A DNA stretch of 64,000 nt from Promethearchaeia archaeon (GTDB lineage: Archaea; Asgardarchaeota; Lokiarchaeia; Sigyniarchaeales; SOKP01), in contig JAHQWK010000001.1 of the NCBI GenBank assembly GCA_029856145.1, forward strand, positions 585,474 to 649,473. The letters run 5' to 3'. The translations under genes were made by a program, and so were the position numbers. The notes beneath the pieces were generated by a model that worked only from the letters and a program-made list of their open reading frames with translations, was not told the DNA's origin and made no database searches. Below are positions 16,415-23,997 of the stretch, one piece after another; position 1 is the first letter of the stretch, and each line of letters starts with the position of its first letter.

Positions 16415-18418
16415 ATGGCTTATTTCAAGAATATAGTATTGGTCAAGGCGGAAGGAAATTATTTTGATGCTAGCTTTTTTGAAGCAAACATTCCTCTTTG
16501 TTATCTTAGCGCAGTCATAAAAGATCACGTGAATTCTGTTACAATGCCTATGGATATGCGTATAGATCTTAGACCATTTGAAAAATATGAAAATCATTTA
16601 GTAAAAATGGAAAAAGGAGGTGGGAAATGTGATCTTGTAGGAATTTCAACTATGACAGCATCATTTCCCAACGCAATAATACTTGCTAGAATAGCAAAAA
16701 AACATGGTGCTTATGTTGTTGTGGGAGGTTATCATCCTTCTGCTCTTCCTGAAGCAATGTTTAATGTCCCAGAAATTGATGCTGTTGTTCGTGGAGAAGG
16801 AGAAATGACTTTAAAAGAACTTGTTCTAAACGGTCCTTCAACCTTCGTTAAAGGATTGAGCTTTAGGGATGAAAATGGGATTATTTGTCATAATCAGGAC
16901 CGTGAAAGGATAATGCATCTCGACTCGTTACCATTTCCAGATAGGAATTTGCGTCCAGAGAACCCTATCTTTAATAAACACGAAGTCGTAGTTACATCAC
17001 GCGGTTGTAATGGTACTTGTACATTTTGTGCAAATGATGCTGTACACGGTCGATGGCGAGGTCGTTCCCCAGAAAATGTTGTTGCAGAATTGAAAATGCT
17101 ACAAAAAAAACACCCAGACTTATCTACAGTCCATATATGGGACGCAAATTTTATGCAAGACAGCGAGAGAGTCGCTAAAATCATTAATCTCATCAAAGAA
17201 AACAAAATTTACTTCAAATATTTCTGTGAAATGCGCGTAGATCACATAACTAAACACCCCGATTTAATCAAAAGATTAGCAGAAATAGGAATGGAGTGGA
17301 TAGCAATTGGTATTGAAAGTCCGTATCAAGAGCGTTTGAAAAAATTAAAAAAAGGGATTACTACTTTTGCCGTGGAAAAGGCTATCGAAATATTGAAGGA
17401 GAACAAAATTAAAATTGTAGGATATTTAATGATAGGCGATCCGGACGAGACAATGGAGCAAGTGAAGGAGTATCCCGTATATGCAACGAGAGTTGGCATA
17501 GATAAGATCATGTTAGCCATACAGACACCACATCCAGGAAGCTTATTGTTTAAGGAGATGGCTAAGGAAGGAGCCATAACGTCATATCAATGGGAGAAAT
17601 ACGATATAGGTCATTCAGTAGCAAAATTGAAAAATATGACGAATCATGAATGTGAGGTTCTCATGGATTGGTGTTGGGGAAAATATTATAGCCCTGAATG
17701 GGCGTTTTCCCGAGAGAGATCGCTAAAAGAAGCATTTTTTCGATATTTGTCCTTTGTTTGGATTGGTTATCCTGGTTTTTTTATTCACGCACGTTCTAGA
17801 GAGACTGTTGAAGAAAATTTAAGAGCATATATCTCAGCAATGCAAGGTTATTATGATTTAAGCAAGTATGAATATACAGATGCAGATTATCTCGATGATC
17901 TAAGGGGGTATAATTTTCAATTGACTTTTCGTTTCAGTAATGGAGATGATATTTCTTTGTTAGCTTCAATAGATAAAAACAGCAAGCTAGTGATTGAAAT
18001 ATTTAATGGAAAAAGAAAAGATGTATTTCTCGATTTTACACTTAATTCAAGTGATTTCATTGATATTCTTAAATCCTTACCCTTACAAATTATTTCGCTC
18101 GTACATTGGGCGGGGTTTAATTTTAACAACTTGAAAGCAAACATTCATGTCTTTAAGACTTTCTTGTCTATGGTTGCAAAAGCAGTTCGATTGAACACGA
18201 TAAATTATAAAAAATTAACAAAATATTTAGTTGTAGGAACAAAATTTCTTCCTAAAAAATTATATGAACTAATCAGAGAAGAAATTCCAATTTTCAACAA
18301 TAAAAAGAAAAGTGAAGTATATGAAGATAATTACATGAAAGCTATAACAAACTCGGTTAGAAATGTTTTATATAAAGTAATACTGTTCCCTTTCACAATT
18401 CTCGTTCCTGTTGACTGA
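16415..18418 (+). CDS. B12-binding radical SAM protein
   Basis: VVGGYHPS, VRGEGE, TSRGCNGTCTFC, GIES. Confidence 0.92.
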   Translation: MAYFKNIVLVKAEGNYFDASFFEANIPLCYLSAVIKDHVNSVTMPMDMRIDLRPFEKYENHLVKMEKGGGKCDLVGISTMTASFPNAIILARIAKKHGAYVVVGGYHPSALPEAMFNVPEIDAVVRGEGEMTLKELVLNGPSTFVKGLSFRDENGIICHNQDRERIMHLDSLPFPDRNLRPENPIFNKHEVVVTSRGCNGTCTFCANDAVHGRWRGRSPENVVAELKMLQKKHPDLSTVHIWDANFMQDSERVAKIINLIKENKIYFKYFCEMRVDHITKHPDLIKRLAEIGMEWIAIGIESPYQERLKKLKKGITTFAVEKAIEILKENKIKIVGYLMIGDPDETMEQVKEYPVYATRVGIDKIMLAIQTPHPGSLLFKEMAKEGAITSYQWEKYDIGHSVAKLKNMTNHECEVLMDWCWGKYYSPEWAFSRERSLKEAFFRYLSFVWIGYPGFFIHARSRETVEENLRAYISAMQGYYDLSKYEYTDADYLDDLRGYNFQLTFRFSNGDDISLLASIDKNSKLVIEIFNGKRKDVFLDFTLNSSDFIDILKSLPLQIISLVHWAGFNFNNLKANIHVFKTFLSMVAKAVRLNTINYKKLTKYLVVGTKFLPKKLYELIREEIPIFNNKKKSEVYEDNYMKAITNSVRNVLYKVILFPFTILVPVD

Positions 18419-18685: not shown

Positions 18686-19246
18686 TTATTCAGTTTGAAG
18701 TCGTTCTCCCAATTTATAATAATTGAAGTCACCTCCAGTAGTCCAAATAATTGGATGTATCTTCCTCCAATCGAGCTTGACGTTATCCTCTTCCTTAATA
18801 GTGTATTGTTGATTTACATAAGATTTAATTACCTTACCAATAATTCCTTCACCATCGCCATAGTCGAGGATTTCATGTACTTCACATTCTATATTTACTG
18901 GACATTCACGAATCATTGGGGCTGTTTTTAATTCTCCGTAAAAATTATCAAAGAGGGAACTTTTATCAATATCCCGTCCAGATTTACTTCCACAAATATT
19001 TGTTTTTTCCACGAGATCCTCTGAAGGGATATTTACACTAAAGGTCATATTCTCATGAATTCCGATTGTAGTATAGCGTGTTGGAGATAAACTGAAGAAA
19101 ATATACTTGCCAAAATCAAATGGACAGCTATACCCAATTACCAGATAATTAGGCTTATTATATACATTTGCTCCTACCAAAATCACTGGTAGTGGACTGA
19201 GAAGATTTCCTTCAACAATTTGTTTATTTAAATTTACTTCTTTCAT
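18686..19246 (-). CDS. flavin reductase-like (flavoredoxin) protein
   Basis: P.PVILVG, FSVNIPS, CGSKSGRDIDK, APMIRECPVNIEC. Confidence 0.9.
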   Translation of the reverse strand: MKEVNLNKQIVEGNLLSPLPVILVGANVYNKPNYLVIGYSCPFDFGKYIFFSLSPTRYTTIGIHENMTFSVNIPSEDLVEKTNICGSKSGRDIDKSSLFDNFYGELKTAPMIRECPVNIECEVHEILDYGDGEGIIGKVIKSYVNQQYTIKEEDNVKLDWRKIHPIIWTTGGDFNYYKLGERLQTE

Positions 19247-19259
19247 TTTTGATTATTTT

Positions 19260-19919
19260 TTATAGTTTTTTTACAATATAGTCAAGGATACAGGTACGTC
19301 CTGTATTGAAATAATTTCCTTGCATGATATGCCTTTTTTCTTTATAAATTATCTCAAAATCTTTACAATATTTGTCAGGTTCATCATCATCATAAAAACT
19401 ATGAAGAAACTTTCCATTACCTTCTATAGTTATAACTTCACCTGGGTTTTGTTCTATTCCATTACCATAATGATTATCGTCCTTCGAAAGGAAGTTTATA
19501 TAACAAAGTCCCTCTTTTTTCAGCACTCTATACATTTCTTTGATGGCAATTCCACTATCAATCTTATTTAAATGAAAAATAGAATTATAAGAAAATACAA
19601 AACTAAAAAAATTAGACTCAAATGGTATTTTTCTCATATCAGCTTTAATAATTTTTAGTTTTATTCCATTTTCTTCACAATACTCATTAGAATAGTTAAT
19701 AGAATCTTCCGAAATATCAATTCCATAAGTTTCAAATCCATTCTCATGAAAAAATGCAAGCTTAGGATTTGAACCACCAGCTCCACAATCTAAAATTTTT
19801 TTTTCTAAAGGCACTGAATTCGTGAATCTAAGGAAATTATACAATGAAGAGGGATAAAAATTCTGGATCATTTTCCATAAATACCTCATATCTGTTAGTT
19901 TTTTAATAATATTTTTCAT
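19260..19919 (-). CDS. class I SAM-dependent methyltransferase
   Basis: ILDCGAGG, GIDIS, ADMRKIPF, EMYRVLK. Confidence 0.9.
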   Translation of the reverse strand: MKNIIKKLTDMRYLWKMIQNFYPSSLYNFLRFTNSVPLEKKILDCGAGGSNPKLAFFHENGFETYGIDISEDSINYSNEYCEENGIKLKIIKADMRKIPFESNFFSFVFSYNSIFHLNKIDSGIAIKEMYRVLKKEGLCYINFLSKDDNHYGNGIEQNPGEVITIEGNGKFLHSFYDDDEPDKYCKDFEIIYKEKRHIMQGNYFNTGRTCILDYIVKKL

Positions 19920-20497
19920 GAAGTTTTATACTTTTTACCAATCTCAAATGCGGGGGCAAGTTTTTCGCCAACTTTCCAATAATTGTTCAGTGAATATGTA
20001 TAGGTTTTTAGTTTAGCAATGTCTGGTATCCCTTCTGTTAAATATTCCTCATCTGCATAAGCATTTACTACTTTTCCGATAAAAATTTCATGACCTTCCT
20101 CGATCTCCACTAATTCCTTTATCTTAAAGCTTTTAACCAACTCACATTCAAGATTTAGAGGTGAGAGACTAACCATTGGTGCTGTTTTAAGATCCCCGTA
20201 AAAAACATCAAATACTTCTGATTTATCTATTTCTTTTCCTGAAACTATGCCACAATAATCAATCATTTCTGCCAAATCTTCTGAGGGTGTATTAACGCTA
20301 AATGTTTCATTTTCCTTAATACCAATATTAGTATAATGAGTTTCGTAAGAAGCTATTGAAATTAATGGTGGTTGACTTTCGACAATGCCGACATATGCAA
20401 GTGTCTCAAAATTCGGTTTTTCATTCACATTTGCCCCGATAAGAGCAACTGGCATAGGAAATAAATAAGCTCTTGGAGGAATTTTATTTTTCTTCAT
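19916..20497 (-). CDS. flavin reductase-like (flavoredoxin) protein, paralog of 18686..19246
   Basis: PMPVALIG, FSVNTPS, CGIVSGKEIDK, PLNLEC, HEIFIG. Confidence 0.9.
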   Translation of the reverse strand: MKKNKIPPRAYLFPMPVALIGANVNEKPNFETLAYVGIVESQPPLISIASYETHYTNIGIKENETFSVNTPSEDLAEMIDYCGIVSGKEIDKSEVFDVFYGDLKTAPMVSLSPLNLECELVKSFKIKELVEIEEGHEIFIGKVVNAYADEEYLTEGIPDIAKLKTYTYSLNNYWKVGEKLAPAFEIGKKYKTS

Positions 20498-20639: not shown

Positions 20640-21002
20640 TTAGCCACAACAACCAGTATTTGAATTATCTTCACTGGTTGGTCCACAGCCACATGAATTT
20701 TCAATCGCTTTACCTTTTTTTGCATTTTTAGCTACACCTCTCGCATTCCACAAACATCCACACCCTTTTCGTTCATTCAAGATAATTGCTTGAGTTGGGC
20801 AATTTCTCTTACAAGCACTGCATTCTGTACATAGCTCAGGTCTTGGTATTTCATATTTTCCAGAACTATGGGGTTGTGGAAGTCCAAATGGGCACACTTC
20901 AGCACATAGACCACAGCCATTACACACATCTTTATCAATAAAGATTAAAATATCTTTAACAAATTCAGTAAAATCAAATGATTCAAAATTTGTTTCTGTC
21001 AT
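20640..21002 (-). CDS. hgcB: 2[4Fe-4S] ferredoxin, HgcB-like
   Basis: CNGCGLCAEVCP and CTECSACKRNCP; GCGC; Cys-rich tail ending GCCG; directly downstream of the hgcA-like gene; GAGGT SD. Confidence 0.7.
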   Translation of the reverse strand: MTETNFESFDFTEFVKDILIFIDKDVCNGCGLCAEVCPFGLPQPHSSGKYEIPRPELCTECSACKRNCPTQAIILNERKGCGCLWNARGVAKNAKKGKAIENSCGCGPTSEDNSNTGCCG

Positions 21003-21040
21003 TTTACTTACCTCCTATTTATGTACATCTTTTATTTTTT

Positions 21041-22708
21041 TTAAATATATATGGAAAATAAAAATCCTAAAGCTAGAAAAATCAAACTTAGGACAAATAA
21101 AATCTTATTAATTAAATTAAAAATTGGATATTCCTCTTGGATTTCTCTTGGGCTTGTAGCCATTGTGTAACCACTAAATGACATTATTGAAAAGAATGTA
21201 ATCCAAAAATAAAAGCATAATTGCCAGAGAGTATAAAATATGGAGTTATGGATCAAATAAGACAATCCTCCCAAGAAAATTATATTAATTATCCCAAAAA
21301 AAATACCTTTAAAAATAAATCTCCTAGTGAATCTTGAAATTGGGAATAACAGCGCAATAATAAAATTTGATATAATTATCCAAAGCGATAGCTCACCAAT
21401 CCACCATAACTTGTTAAACCAAGTTAGGATCGAGAATAGTAGAACTAATCCAATTAGAGGTAGGATAAATATTTTTCGAAATAAAAATGATGTATGAGTT
21501 ATTCCCCCACGAATTCGATGGAATAATGTAAATTTAGCTAATTTCATTCGGTCAGGTTTTTGAGCAGGATTTTCATCAAGAAATTGAGGTATAGATTTTG
21601 ACCAAACTGGTCCGTATTTAACTCTAAAAGGGAATTTTTCTGAATTCTTCGGAAGTTGAGGTATAGCTACACCTCCAGCTGAAAGTTGTGGCAGTAATAA
21701 TGTTTTTTTTTGAGTTATATTTTTTATCCCTGTTGCTTCTATTGCCTCAAGAAGTTGCATATTTCCAAAATCATTACCACGAGCGGCACACCATACATTT
21801 ATGCCGTTTGAATCAATACACAATACCCACGCATCAAGTCCTTTAAGATCACGCATCACCTTAATATAAGTAAATTCATAATTAGCGGTGACAATTATAG
21901 GCGATTTTTCATTAGGATTTCCAGATTGATAAATCCCGGGTTCGATAGGAACACGATCAACTTGTCCAGTGAAAATACAACGATAAATTCTTAATTGAGA
22001 TCGAAGTCCCTTAAATCTCTTTATTTCGGGCCTATAATACCCCGGTTCATTAGTTCCCTTATCATTAATTTTTTGTAGTTCTATCGCTTGGATTGATCCA
22101 TGCTTCCATTTTATCTGAGTATTGATTTTAAAACCGATTGGGTCTAAATATTTAAGAAACCACTTAACAAGATAAGTACTTTTTAAACGTAAACGTCTTA
22201 ATTTCTTTTTATACCGCCATCTTTTAAACTTAAACAGTAACTTCCAAAATCCAGAGGGAAAAAATTCAGCGGCTAAAATTAAACGACCATTTGGTTTCAA
22301 TGATTTCCATACGTTTCTAAGAAATAATTGCTGTTCTAAAGGACGAAGTTCAGATAACATAAATTTACTTACTACAATATCTTGAGAACCGTCTGGTGTT
22401 GGTAAATCGGTAAATGAACCTGTTTGATATAATAGTTTTCCACCAGATAAATCCGTTGGATAATTCTTCATAGCATAATCAATCATTTGAAAGTTTCTGT
22501 CAATTGCAATTACATTATTCCCTTTTTGCACCATTTTTGAAGCAAGCAAGCCTGTACCGCATCCAATTTCTAATATAGATTCGGAACTATTAATTCGATT
22601 TATAATCCAGTTCTGAACTTCAATATTTACTCCTTTTGTTAAGGCAGTAAATTTAGAATCGTAAGTTTCTGGCTCTTCTTCTAGTTTTCGCATATAAACG
22701 ACGGCCAT
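21041..22708 (-). CDS. hgcA: fusion of class I SAM methyltransferase, HgcA-like corrinoid domain and TM domain
   Basis: ILEIGCGTG..LKPNGRL (MTase); VTANY, GINVWCAARG (motif at 21782-21799), LPQLSAGGV, VKYGPV (HgcA/CdhD corrinoid domain); about five TMs with FSGYT..TSP. Confidence 0.75.
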   Translation of the reverse strand: MAVVYMRKLEEEPETYDSKFTALTKGVNIEVQNWIINRINSSESILEIGCGTGLLASKMVQKGNNVIAIDRNFQMIDYAMKNYPTDLSGGKLLYQTGSFTDLPTPDGSQDIVVSKFMLSELRPLEQQLFLRNVWKSLKPNGRLILAAEFFPSGFWKLLFKFKRWRYKKKLRRLRLKSTYLVKWFLKYLDPIGFKINTQIKWKHGSIQAIELQKINDKGTNEPGYYRPEIKRFKGLRSQLRIYRCIFTGQVDRVPIEPGIYQSGNPNEKSPIIVTANYEFTYIKVMRDLKGLDAWVLCIDSNGINVWCAARGNDFGNMQLLEAIEATGIKNITQKKTLLLPQLSAGGVAIPQLPKNSEKFPFRVKYGPVWSKSIPQFLDENPAQKPDRMKLAKFTLFHRIRGGITHTSFLFRKIFILPLIGLVLLFSILTWFNKLWWIGELSLWIIISNFIIALLFPISRFTRRFIFKGIFFGIINIIFLGGLSYLIHNSIFYTLWQLCFYFWITFFSIMSFSGYTMATSPREIQEEYPIFNLINKILFVLSLIFLALGFLFSIYI

Positions 22709-22776
22709 AAGCAAACACTCTATTATTAATACATTAATTTTTATTTTAAAACACTTGAAATATTAAAGAGATCAAT

Positions 22777-23346
22777 TTATTTTTGTAGTAGTTTTGCTGT
22801 TTTTAGAATATTGAATCCAAGAATTTCTGCTTGTTTTAACCGGTTTTCTTGGTTTAAAATATCACCTGGCTTGTCAGCAACAGCTTTTACCCCATGTAAT
22901 TCACCAGGAACACATATAATTCCACATGAGAGCATCCATGCATGAATGGCATTAATTGTTATTGCTTGACCTCCCGATGTTCCATTACCAACCGCGATAG
23001 CTCCTCCTACTTTCCCTTCTAAAGGTTTTTTGACCTTTACCGCATAATGTCTATCAAGTAAGGAGAGTAATTGAGCACTAACATTTAGGTAATAAACAGG
23101 ACTTGAGATTATAATTGCATTACACCATCGAAACGCATCATAAATCTCTTGCATATCGTCATTAATAATACAAGTACCAGTTTCCCTACATGAGTCGCAG
23201 GCATTACAAGGTTTAATTTCTAATTCGCTTAAAAGGAAAATTTTAACATTCCATGCATTATTTTCAAAAGGTTTTAGAGCATATCTTAGGAGGAGTTCAC
23301 TATTCCCTTTCTTCCTAGGAGTCCCTGATATACCAATAACATTCAT
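22777..23346 (-). CDS. iron-sulfur flavoprotein / NADPH-dependent FMN reductase family
   Basis: ISGTPRKKGNS, CNACDSCRETGTC, DDMQ, SPVY. Confidence 0.9.
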   Translation of the reverse strand: MNVIGISGTPRKKGNSELLLRYALKPFENNAWNVKIFLLSELEIKPCNACDSCRETGTCIINDDMQEIYDAFRWCNAIIISSPVYYLNVSAQLLSLLDRHYAVKVKKPLEGKVGGAIAVGNGTSGGQAITINAIHAWMLSCGIICVPGELHGVKAVADKPGDILNQENRLKQAEILGFNILKTAKLLQK

Positions 23347-23429
23347 TCTTTTTCACACTTAATAATAACTTTATTATTATAATCCTCTTTAGCGCCTTCG
23401 GAACAACAACTTTGATCTTTATCTCCCAT
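23343..23429 (-). CDS. 28-aa Cys-Cys peptide (MGDKDQSCCSEGAKEDYNNKVIIKCEKE)
   Basis: GAGG upstream of ATG; its TGA overlaps the next gene's ATG (ATGA coupling); below the ORF-track size cutoff. Confidence 0.55.
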   Translation of the reverse strand: MGDKDQSCCSEGAKEDYNNKVIIKCEKE

Positions 23430-23496
23430 TTTTTATTGCCTCTTTAATTCATTTTTAAATTTTATTTTTAAGCTATTGAAGTACTAATAGAATGTA

Positions 23497-23520
23497 TCAC
23501 ATAAAAATATTTCGATGTGA
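23497..23520. promoter_or_regulatory. candidate ArsR/SmtB operator (24-bp imperfect palindrome)
   Basis: TCACATAAAAATATTTCGATGTGA matches its reverse complement at 20/24 positions; lies between divergent arsR and the hgcA-like operon. Confidence 0.7.
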
Positions 23521-23604
23521 ATTTAGATTTATAAATATGAATAAAATTTTTATAATTTCATTCCTTCTATTATAGTAACAATACAAAAATACAATGATAT
23601 TTAG

Positions 23605-23997
23605 ATGAAAGTAGAAAGAAAGAAAGAAATTAAAGACACATTATGTGGATGCAATGATTGTTCTAATGGTGATACATACTTCGAACGCCTACAACAAATT
23701 GGAAAAGCTCTAAAATTTGATCAAAAATTAAATTCGCTGTCAACATTTTTTAATGCTTTAGGAAACAAGGAACGTTTAACTATACTGACAGCATTAAAGA
23801 ATAAAGAACGTTGTGTATGTGAACTAGAAGCGATCTTAGATAAATCTCAACCTTCAATTTCTCACCACCTTCGAGAACTAGAAAAAGTGGGCTTGATTCG
23901 AGGGTGGAAAAAAGGGAAATATACCTACTATACCTTATTAAAAAAAGAATTTGAAATGTATTTGGCAAATTTTAATCAAGAATTTAGTTTTGAATAA
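23605..23997 (+). CDS. arsR: ArsR/SmtB metal(loid)-sensing repressor
   Basis: FNALGNKERL, CVCELE (alpha3 site), SQPSISHHLREL..GL; extra N-terminal CGCNDC. Confidence 0.88.
   Translation: MKVERKKEIKDTLCGCNDCSNGDTYFERLQQIGKALKFDQKLNSLSTFFNALGNKERLTILTALKNKERCVCELEAILDKSQPSISHHLRELEKVGLIRGWKKGKYTYYTLLKKEFEMYLANFNQEFSFE

Follow-up and report, generated by a model that had tools for sequence, protein, structure and literature searches.

A CpaM-like methyltransferase fused to an HgcA-like corrinoid protein in a predicted arsenic regulon of Lokiarchaeia

Introduction

What is the substrate of a protein that joins a SAM methyltransferase to an HgcA-like corrinoid domain in one chain and is encoded opposite an ArsR-type repressor? 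The question is raised by positions 20,640–23,997 of the window, the 64,000-nucleotide stretch of contig JAHQWK010000001.1 (Promethearchaeia archaeon, assembly GCA_029856145.1) that was analysed. Such a system, which has the catalytic anatomy of HgcAB and pairs a built-in SAM enzyme with an apparently clear place in an arsenic regulon, offers a way to address how HgcAB arose and what its native role is. Asgard HgcA-like proteins were reportedly placed with the fused-HgcAB branch, as potential mercury methylators, by Zhang et al. in 2023. In the accessible literature, earlier work on Asgard hgcA-like genes was found to mention no fused methyltransferase, ars operon or operator.

Results and Discussion

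Organization of the locus

Every part listed by a sequence-only reading of this DNA is present. The ArsR/SmtB repressor gene arsR (23605–23997, plus strand) encodes an α3 CxC site (Cys70-Val-Cys72) and N-terminal cysteines 14, 16 and 19, and its product scores above the NF033788 cut-off (77.5 versus 55). A palindromic candidate ArsR operator is located at 23497–23520. The remaining genes are on the minus strand: a 28-residue Cys-Cys peptide (23343–23429), which overlaps the start of the flavoprotein gene by 4 nt; an Isf-type iron-sulfur flavoprotein (22777–23346; PF03358, with a CX2CX2CX5C motif); a fusion protein (21041–22708); and an HgcB-like 2[4Fe-4S] ferredoxin (20640–21002). The fusion is a single reading frame without internal stops, 555 residues long from its ATG, with TTG at 22714 as an alternative start. 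It consists of a CpaM-like class I methyltransferase domain (about residues 1–215; 22064–22708), a PF03599 corrinoid-binding domain (about residues 239–390; 21539–21994) and a C-terminal membrane domain (residues 395–554; 21044–21526). A scan of the locus for bacterial promoters and terminators gave no signal clearly over chance.

The peptide and flavoprotein lie within about 690 bp (22767–23454, minus strand) that are missing in five close relatives (L005, L006, L008, L034 and L035) and are flanked by a 33-nt direct repeat with 79% identity (22734–22766 and 23455–23487). The flavoprotein gene shares 91% nucleotide identity with its copy at L036, where the fusion gene is just 68% identical, and of about 38 loci, only 3 have it beside the fusion. 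In MarR-type loci, peptides with two or three CC pairs lie upstream of the fusion, and the present peptide is a shortened relative of these. Judged by these comparisons, the pair is a recent insert, accessory and no part of the core, and for that reason the flavoprotein does not qualify as the general core reductant, the role that the sequence-only reading had given it.

Distribution of the fusion

The fusion is present in 112 of 161 Lokiarchaeia genomes, a count in which related genomes are not independent observations and from which one genome scan with a fused query, favouring loci that carry both domains, was left out. Two of the carriers, the cultured strains P. syntrophicum MK-D1 and Ca. 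L. ossiferum, have closed genomes (accessions QEE17993/QEE17992 and UYP44054/UYP44053), so that direct testing is possible. The best 120 homologs listed share 65–100% identity and are nearly all full length. This wide occurrence, which includes cultured strains, rules out an assembly chimera or a chance reading frame. At every complete locus examined, the fusion is paired with the downstream ferredoxin.

The methyltransferase domain

The N-terminal domain has the class I SAM fold, with GxGxG (22550–22570), Asp70 and Asp110 conserved. CpaM is its best methyltransferase family, ahead by about 90 bits, and the match spans model positions 2–215 of NF043040 with a score of 136.8, below the cut-off of 180. 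The fusion methyltransferases, with scores of about 140–157, make up a distinct CpaM-like subfamily and, like CpaM, are linked to an HgcA-like corrinoid protein. A fold similar to that of phospholipid N-methyltransferase 8ys9 was found (TM-score 0.75 by target). A literature search gave no paper on CpaM among the matches listed.

A SAM methyltransferase partner had been thought unusual; this view does not hold, since CpaM relatives accompany non-canonical HgcA paralogs in many phyla. Among 201 Desulfobacterota genomes, CpaM occurs only in those with a non-canonical HgcA paralog, and in all 11 of them. Moreover, fusions of the methyltransferase to the corrinoid protein arose several times independently. 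The domain was also considered as a fused ArsM and rejected: it scores 34.7 bits against the NF008823 cut-off of 263, the conserved ArsM-type cysteines are absent, and its sole frequent cysteine sits in the GxGxG loop.

The corrinoid and membrane domains

Against the HgcA model NF040863, the corrinoid part scores 167.8 bits (cut-off 275), whereas every one of the 33 canonical controls reaches E < 1e-81, which is about the cut-off. None of the 161 Lokiarchaeia genomes encodes a protein that passes this model, compared with 60 of 201 Desulfobacterota genomes; the putative methylator status of these abundant sediment archaea therefore rests on paralogs. An earlier tree, from which the first 327 alignment columns had been removed beforehand, grouped Asgard HgcA-like proteins with the fused-HgcAB branch and regarded them as potential mercury methylators (PMC10083202). 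In our tree, the canonical HgcA clade (support 100/99) leaves out the fusion, which falls in its own clade (100/100). A sister position of the two clades is not rejected (p-AU 0.075), and nesting of canonical HgcA has marginal support (p-AU 0.040). By profile and phylogeny, the corrinoid protein is thus not HgcA, as it had been called; what falls is the label, not the HgcA-like chemistry.

The cap motif NVWCAARG (21776–21799), noted earlier as a departure from the ...GK form, is a genuine clade feature: NVWCAAR is found in 119 of 119 homologs with the motif and is followed by Gly in 118, in place of N(V/I)WCA(A/G)GK. In canonical HgcA, the Gly is kept in 32 of 33 sequences and the Lys in 31 of 33. 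Cys307, the putative cobalt ligand, is invariant in 24 of 24 sequences. Additionally, Cys244 is invariant and Cys297 nearly so in the fusion clade, and neither is found in canonical HgcA. The AlphaFold2 model contains five long helices at residues 395–554, as in the HgcA membrane domain; hydropathy recovers four, and the top fold match of this domain is the HgcAB model 9a0b. A CdhE remnant was ruled out by comparison and tree (NF003195 score 68 versus 306), and separate CdhD and CdhE are encoded at another place in the host genome.

The ferredoxin

The ferredoxin scores 50.7 bits against HgcB model NF040864 (cut-off 99). It nevertheless has the features of HgcB, namely two CxxCxxCxxxC motifs, an equivalent of Cys73, C-terminal cysteines and a position next to the corrinoid gene, with every HgcB cysteine retained and one further cysteine gained. 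Cys81-Gly-Cys83 (within GCGC, 20754–20765) is invariant, Cys83 occupies the position of ND132 Cys73, and the Cys-rich tail ends in Cys-Cys-Gly (GCCG). Selenocysteine read-through in this tail was considered and rejected, since 65 of 67 rows end at TAA or TAG. A model of the fusion–ferredoxin complex scored 0.77 (best control 0.00), a passing mark that was reached by 58 of 80 solved pairs and 2 of 110 mismatched pairs; the runs share at least 82% of contacts, with a partner pLDDT of at least 68. The model supports binding of the ferredoxin to the fusion, with the qualification that its pass may reflect likeness, since an HgcAB model already exists. The self-contained SAM, corrinoid and ferredoxin architecture proposed earlier is borne out by these results.

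Place in the arsenic regulon

The arsR product, with its cysteine site, shares 51% identity with its paralog, the ArsR at the head of the acr3 operon in the same genome. With an operator position weight matrix trained on other genomes, the host genome being left out, the acr3 promoter ranks first in the whole genome (25.7) and the fusion promoter second (24.2), followed by the next site at 19.3; none of 300 shuffles reaches the fusion-promoter score. The ArsR control proposed earlier thus gains a predicted operator shared with acr3. Of 100 genomes with both genes, at least 43 have the fusion starting less than 200 bp downstream of acr3, an adjacency that spans several genera and two families. 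In the host genome, the ancestral operon is split and each half retained an arsR copy. ArsR also precedes CpaM fusions in separate lineages. The fusion operon thus apparently belongs to the ars regulon, under the same predicted operator as the arsenite pump.

Recurrent neighbours of the fusion include ArsC, ArsM, DUF166 and DUF2769, and a thioredoxin-like protein is often encoded in the operon, as is a candidate tandem-Sec protein. The minimum-energy fold of the candidate SECIS consists of two short hairpins and lacks the full canonical form. In 7 genomes the place behind acr3 is taken by ArsM, and 6 of these have no fusion, but genome-wide exclusion between the two was not detected (Fisher p = 0.86), and two operons (L044 and L049) contain both. 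ArsP, the methylarsenite exporter, was not found in the host genome; of 5 genomes tested, 4 lack it. No mer genes are among the recurrent neighbours in the loci examined. Of the inducers suggested earlier, arsenic and antimony are the likely ones, with no sign of induction by mercury; the earlier doubt over mercury as substrate is supported.

Proposed function and alternatives

The substrate of the fusion is probably arsenic or a similar metalloid and not mercury, because an HgcA relative fused to a SAM methyltransferase shares its predicted operator with an arsenite pump. On sequence grounds, a methyl relay from SAM through cobalamin to a metalloid is, as chemistry alone, rather probable. That the protein is a membrane-bound cobalamin-dependent methyltransferase of the arsenic regulon, methylating arsenic or antimony, is a reading we favour tentatively. 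The sequence of events we infer, from induction and cofactor binding to methyl-transfer direction and substrate, would start with As(III) or Sb(III) binding to ArsR, which would free the operator. The ferredoxin would dock on the corrinoid and membrane domains and reduce Cys307-ligated cobalamin to Co(I), which would be methylated by SAM bound to the fused CpaM domain. A trivalent thiophilic metalloid, captured by ferredoxin Cys81-x-Cys83 and the tail cysteines, would then take the methyl group. Methyl-arsenic or methyl-antimony would in this way be made without ArsM, with any mercury methylation as a side reaction. HgcAB draws its methyl group from SAM (PMC11588087), and arsenic methylation from methylcobalamin is a known side reaction of MtaA (PMC13262295). 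Purified HgcAB takes the SAM methyl without a separate methyltransferase (PMC11588087), so CpaM may have another role.

The absence of ArsP from the host and the lack of exclusion between ArsM and the fusion count against arsenic methylation, and the regulon could serve a different arsenic chemistry. Arsenic species might be reduced, thiolated or demethylated by Co(I) together with the ferredoxin thiols; methylarsenite, for instance, could be converted to arsenite, which Acr3 would export. SAM and CpaM would then only return oxidised corrinoid to its active state, a task that SAM has in methionine synthase. Consistent with this, the partner pump Acr3 exports inorganic As(III), ArsP is mostly absent, some operons contain ArsM together with the fusion, and thioredoxin-like and tandem-Sec proteins are frequent companions. 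In ND132, canonical hgcAB is upregulated by arsenic, yet no mono- or dimethylarsenicals are made (10.1101/2022.10.17.512643), which also counts against arsenic methylation; the hgcAB knockout is more sensitive to As(V), and the wild type makes a presumed thioarsenical. We consider such a chemistry unlikely, however: a dedicated methyltransferase fused several times independently seems beyond the needs of rare reactivation, and the neighbourhood has no conserved gene for a methyl acceptor. Passing a methyl group from methylcobalamin back onto SAH is unfavourable.

Most CpaM-corrinoid loci of other phyla lack ars neighbours, which counts against the favoured reading. The triad of CpaM, corrinoid protein and ferredoxin, found in many phyla without ars genes and beside Hdr genes in one Asgard family, might instead methylate a membrane lipid, quinone or protein thiol, or turn over halomethanes, with ars co-induction as a stress response. 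The likeness to 8ys9 fits this role, as does the halomethane dechlorination reported for HgcAB (10.64898/2026.04.26.720869). It is nonetheless unlikely here, as the ferredoxin of the fusion clade retains and extends metal-binding cysteines that non-ars lineages lack, and ArsR and the operator were retained after separation from acr3. A true mercury methylase, that is, a self-charging HgcAB with methylmercury as main product, is improbable, even though nothing that ND132 requires (PMC7305189) is missing among the Cys ligand, the membrane domain, the counterpart of Cys73 and the terminal Cys pair, canonical hgcAB is likewise ArsR-linked and the sister placement is not rejected. The protein fails the HgcA model that recovers all canonical controls, it falls outside the canonical clade with a cap motif that differs where HgcA is nearly invariant, mer context is absent at the loci examined, and the non-canonical paralog of P. 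furiosus, the sole tested one found reported, gave no methylmercury (PMC4646819).

If the favoured reading of a dedicated arsenic or antimony methyltransferase is true, most Lokiarchaeia would have an ArsM-independent pathway, and if the product is methyl-arsenic, arsM-based surveys would overlook a route in the 75 of 112 fusion genomes without ArsM. A further extension, somewhat unlikely as a whole, joins this dedicated methyltransferase to an ancestral CpaM-corrinoid-ferredoxin design from which HgcAB derived by loss of the methyltransferase; mercury methylation would then be a by-product of metalloid chemistry.

Comparison with known systems

ArsM (NF008823) resembles the fusion methyltransferase in its class I SAM fold and, in some genomes, in its slot after acr3. 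Their identity is merely 29% over 107 residues of the SAM-binding core, the fusion domain has none of the arsenic-binding cysteines of ArsM, and ArsM, unlike the fusion system, needs no cobalamin, ferredoxin or membrane domain. The corrinoid iron-sulfur protein CdhE/AcsC has a homologous corrinoid-binding domain but, unlike the fusion, lacks the cap cysteine and the membrane domain.

HgcA/HgcB (NF040863, NF040864) are similar in their cap-helix Cys corrinoid domain, five-helix membrane domain, ArsR linkage and adjoining 2[4Fe-4S] ferredoxin, which bears both a Cys73 equivalent and a terminal Cys pair and has a similar modelled interface. The fusion system differs in scoring under both cut-offs, its separate clade, the cap (RG for GK), the extra invariant Cys244, GCGC where HgcB has GVGC, and the N-terminal SAM methyltransferase, which has no counterpart in 57 of 60 canonical-hgcA genomes.

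CpaM (NF043040) and the HgcAB-like fusion protein (NF043039) comprise the same three modules, a methyltransferase, a corrinoid-membrane protein and a ferredoxin, and the fusion methyltransferase can be aligned to CpaM along its entire length. This system is a second paralog in many Lokiarchaeia, with ars genes absent at the 20 Lokiarchaeia loci examined, and its ferredoxin lacks the extra cysteines. Against NF043039, the fusion scores 170.8 bits (cut-off 285), so that it falls under the cut-offs of both models, and its fusion pattern is the reverse: here the methyltransferase is fused and the ferredoxin is free, encoded by a separate gene.

Locus organization and accessory genes

All five elements described in the sequence-only reading were found in place. 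An arsR gene (23605–23997, + strand) is divergent from a co-oriented run consisting of a 28-residue Cys-Cys peptide, an Isf-type flavoprotein, the 555-residue fusion (21041–22708, − strand) and, last, a 120-residue HgcB-like ferredoxin (20640–21002, − strand). The peptide and flavoprotein genes overlap by 4 nt, and the flavoprotein, fusion and ferredoxin genes are separated by 68 and 38 nt, respectively. The fusion comprises a class I methyltransferase (MTase), a PF03599 corrinoid domain with the motif NVWCAARG, and five C-terminal helices. Its AlphaFold2 model (pTM 0.84) has low confidence confined to the cap segment (residues 306–313), and a fold search with this model returned the HgcAB model 9a0b as best match, with class I MTases next.

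A region of the operon (22767–23454), bordered by an imperfect 33-nt repeat, is missing from five close relatives that align on its two flanks. The flavoprotein gene of this insert shares 91% identity with a copy that lies 5' of another fusion, in a MarR-type locus, although that fusion is only 68% identical to the one in the window, and the 28-residue peptide of the insert is a shortened version of the CC peptides in MarR-type loci. The flavoprotein may help the system at this locus; the fusion system is not dependent on it.

Immediately 3' of the ferredoxin, a second class I MTase lies between two flavin-reductase-like genes (18686–20497, − strand); these reductases follow the ferredoxin in the closest relatives only. 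A nearby B12-binding radical SAM protein (16415–18418, + strand; 667 residues) matched no curated family and is not kept beside the fusion in the loci of relatives.

Distribution

The fusion is carried by 112 of 161 Lokiarchaeia genomes (copies broken at contig ends included). Two of these genomes, from P. syntrophicum and Ca. L. ossiferum, are closed, and both have the gene order arsR, acr3, fusion, ferredoxin. The best 120 homologs listed share 65–100% identity, are almost all full length and are labeled as proteins of Promethearchaeota or of other Asgard archaea, and the ferredoxin follows the fusion in all complete loci examined. The fusion is a real, widespread variant of the HgcAB-like system. 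Within its MTase domain the L. ossiferum copy (L062:5997–7760) has a 34-residue insertion; its annotation is mitochondrial ubiquinone O-methyltransferase.

Arsenic link and predicted operator

In 43 of the 100 genomes with both genes, the fusion starts within 200 bp 3' of acr3, and its neighbors include ArsC, true ArsM, DUF166, DUF2769 and a thioredoxin-like protein. The operon is split in the window's genome: acr3, two small genes and one arsR are located on contig C9 (167.9–170.9 kb), and the fusion and ferredoxin accompany a second arsR, 51% identical to the first. A matrix of the operator, built from 21 arsR promoters of other genomes with the closest relatives left out, ranked the acr3 promoter first in the 3.55 Mb genome (25.7) and the window site at 23497–23520 second (24.2), the third-best site scoring 19.3. 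This shared operator, predicted from sequence, is the strongest evidence for the ArsR control proposed earlier, and the fusion system is probably arsenic-regulated. An ArsR-like gene likewise lies ahead of the CpaM fusion in one distant Asgard locus and in lineages of bacteria, where its product carries a C-terminal Cys-Cys; in one fusion subclade a Cys-rich MarR replaces ArsR, in one case together with ArsM. ArsM occupies the slot after acr3 in seven genomes, mostly of one genus, six of them lacking the fusion; genome-wide mutual exclusion of ArsM and fusion was not found (p = 0.86). ArsM is fused to a thioredoxin-like ars accessory protein in L230, L231 and L235, directly 3' of acr3 in the first two, in genomes without the corrinoid fusion.

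One gene of the acr3 locus (C9:170437 to ~170910, outside the window; also in L012, L018, L045, L054, L057 and L229–L246) stops at TGA in each of its 25 copies, the codons being arranged as TGA-TGA or TGA-Gly-TGA-TGA. If these TGA codons encode selenocysteine, the reading frame extends over another ~37 conserved residues, and a conserved AUGA..AA..GA element resembling a eukaryote-type SECIS lies after it. SepSecS is present in this genome, and the Asgard selenoprotein families listed in the portion of PMC11227280 consulted do not include the product. It is a candidate tandem-Sec metalloid-binding protein.

Relation to HgcA and CpaM

The corrinoid part had been read as HgcA, an identity that does not hold. 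The fusion scores 167.8 against the HgcA model (cut-off 275), 170.8 against the HgcAB-like model (285) and 136.8 against the CpaM model (180), and the ferredoxin 50.7 against the HgcB model (99). All 33 canonical controls have E < 1e-81 against the HgcA model, approximately its cut-off. None of the 161 Lokiarchaeia genomes passes the HgcA model, compared with 60 of 201 Desulfobacterota. Canonical HgcA forms a single clade (100/99) in a CdhE-rooted maximum-likelihood tree, and the window protein belongs to another (100/100); the AU test does not reject their being sisters (p-AU 0.075).

The methyltransferase of the fusion marks a system separate from HgcA. In a Desulfobacterota search that capped the candidates scored in each genome, CpaM was detected in 11 of 201 genomes, precisely those with a non-canonical HgcA paralog; 57 of the 60 canonical-hgcA genomes had no CpaM. 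It is adjacent or fused to the paralog in 10 of the 11, the eleventh apparently being split by contig ends. The MTase, corrinoid and ferredoxin modules occur across many phyla in several fusion patterns. CpaM loss on the HgcA stem is plausible but not established, since CpaM fusions are the nearest relatives of canonical HgcA (97/94) but a constraint uniting all non-canonical proteins is rejected only marginally (p-AU 0.040). Such a loss would agree with SAM being the methyl donor of HgcAB (PMC11588087).

The bacterial CpaM fusions nearest canonical HgcA (L139:5001–6590, L142:5001–6587, L145 and L118) are good candidates for an evolutionary intermediate; the cap motif reads NVWCSAGK in one of them, and an ArsR with a Cys-Cys end precedes two. 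Many Lokiarchaeia (L074–L093; MK-D1, L086:5735–7488) contain a second paralog system, which the window's genome lacks. In it CpaM stands alone, while the HgcAB-like protein, with motif NVWCGACG and without tail cysteines, is a fusion; ars genes are absent. Another Asgard family (L101–L108) has unfused CpaM-like, corrinoid and ferredoxin genes that in most of these loci adjoin heterodisulfide-reductase-like genes.

Proposed function and comparison with known systems

Asgard HgcA-like genes (PMC10083202) and hgcAB under ArsR control (10.1101/2022.10.17.512643) have been described, and NCBIfam has names for CpaM and HgcAB-like proteins; a non-exhaustive literature search found no description of the fusion, of its place in the ars regulon, of the operator it shares with acr3 or of the strict pairing of CpaM with the paralogs. 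The ferredoxin, modeled onto the corrinoid and membrane domains, scored 0.77 (best control 0.00); 58 of 80 solved pairs reach this mark, as do 2 of 110 mismatched ones. Contact agreement was at least 82% and the pLDDT of the partner at least 68. The modeled contacts include cap residues 307–310, the ferredoxin GCGC segment and tail residues 118–119; this pass may reflect likeness to the existing HgcAB model. The ferredoxin would reduce the corrinoid to Co(I), the CpaM domain would catalyze its methylation by SAM, and the methyl group would then pass to a thiol-bound metalloid.

Methylation of As/Sb by this system is a tentative reading, somewhat short of an even chance. Methylcobalamin-dependent arsenic methylation has a precedent as a side reaction of MtaA (PMC13262295); however, ND132, in which canonical hgcAB is arsenic-upregulated, yielded no methylarsenicals (10.1101/2022.10.17.512643), the window's genome lacks ArsP, and most CpaM loci in other lineages have no ars genes. 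A non-arsenic function of the family is doubtful, though it retains appreciable weight, and some other arsenic chemistry is slightly less likely still. A true Hg methylase is quite improbable. The predicted function can be tested in cultured strains.

Hg methylation in ND132 depends on Cys93 and the membrane domain of HgcA and on Cys73 and a terminal Cys of HgcB (PMC7305189); the window proteins have equivalents of all of these. Unlike HgcA, the fusion clade has an additional invariant Cys244, and the GVGC of HgcB is GCGC in its ferredoxin, where the CxC and one tail cysteine would be well matched to As(III)/Sb(III) in three-fold coordination, by analogy with ArsR chemistry. The MTase domain can be aligned with CpaM proteins over its whole length and, in contrast to ArsM, lacks ArsM-type cysteines.
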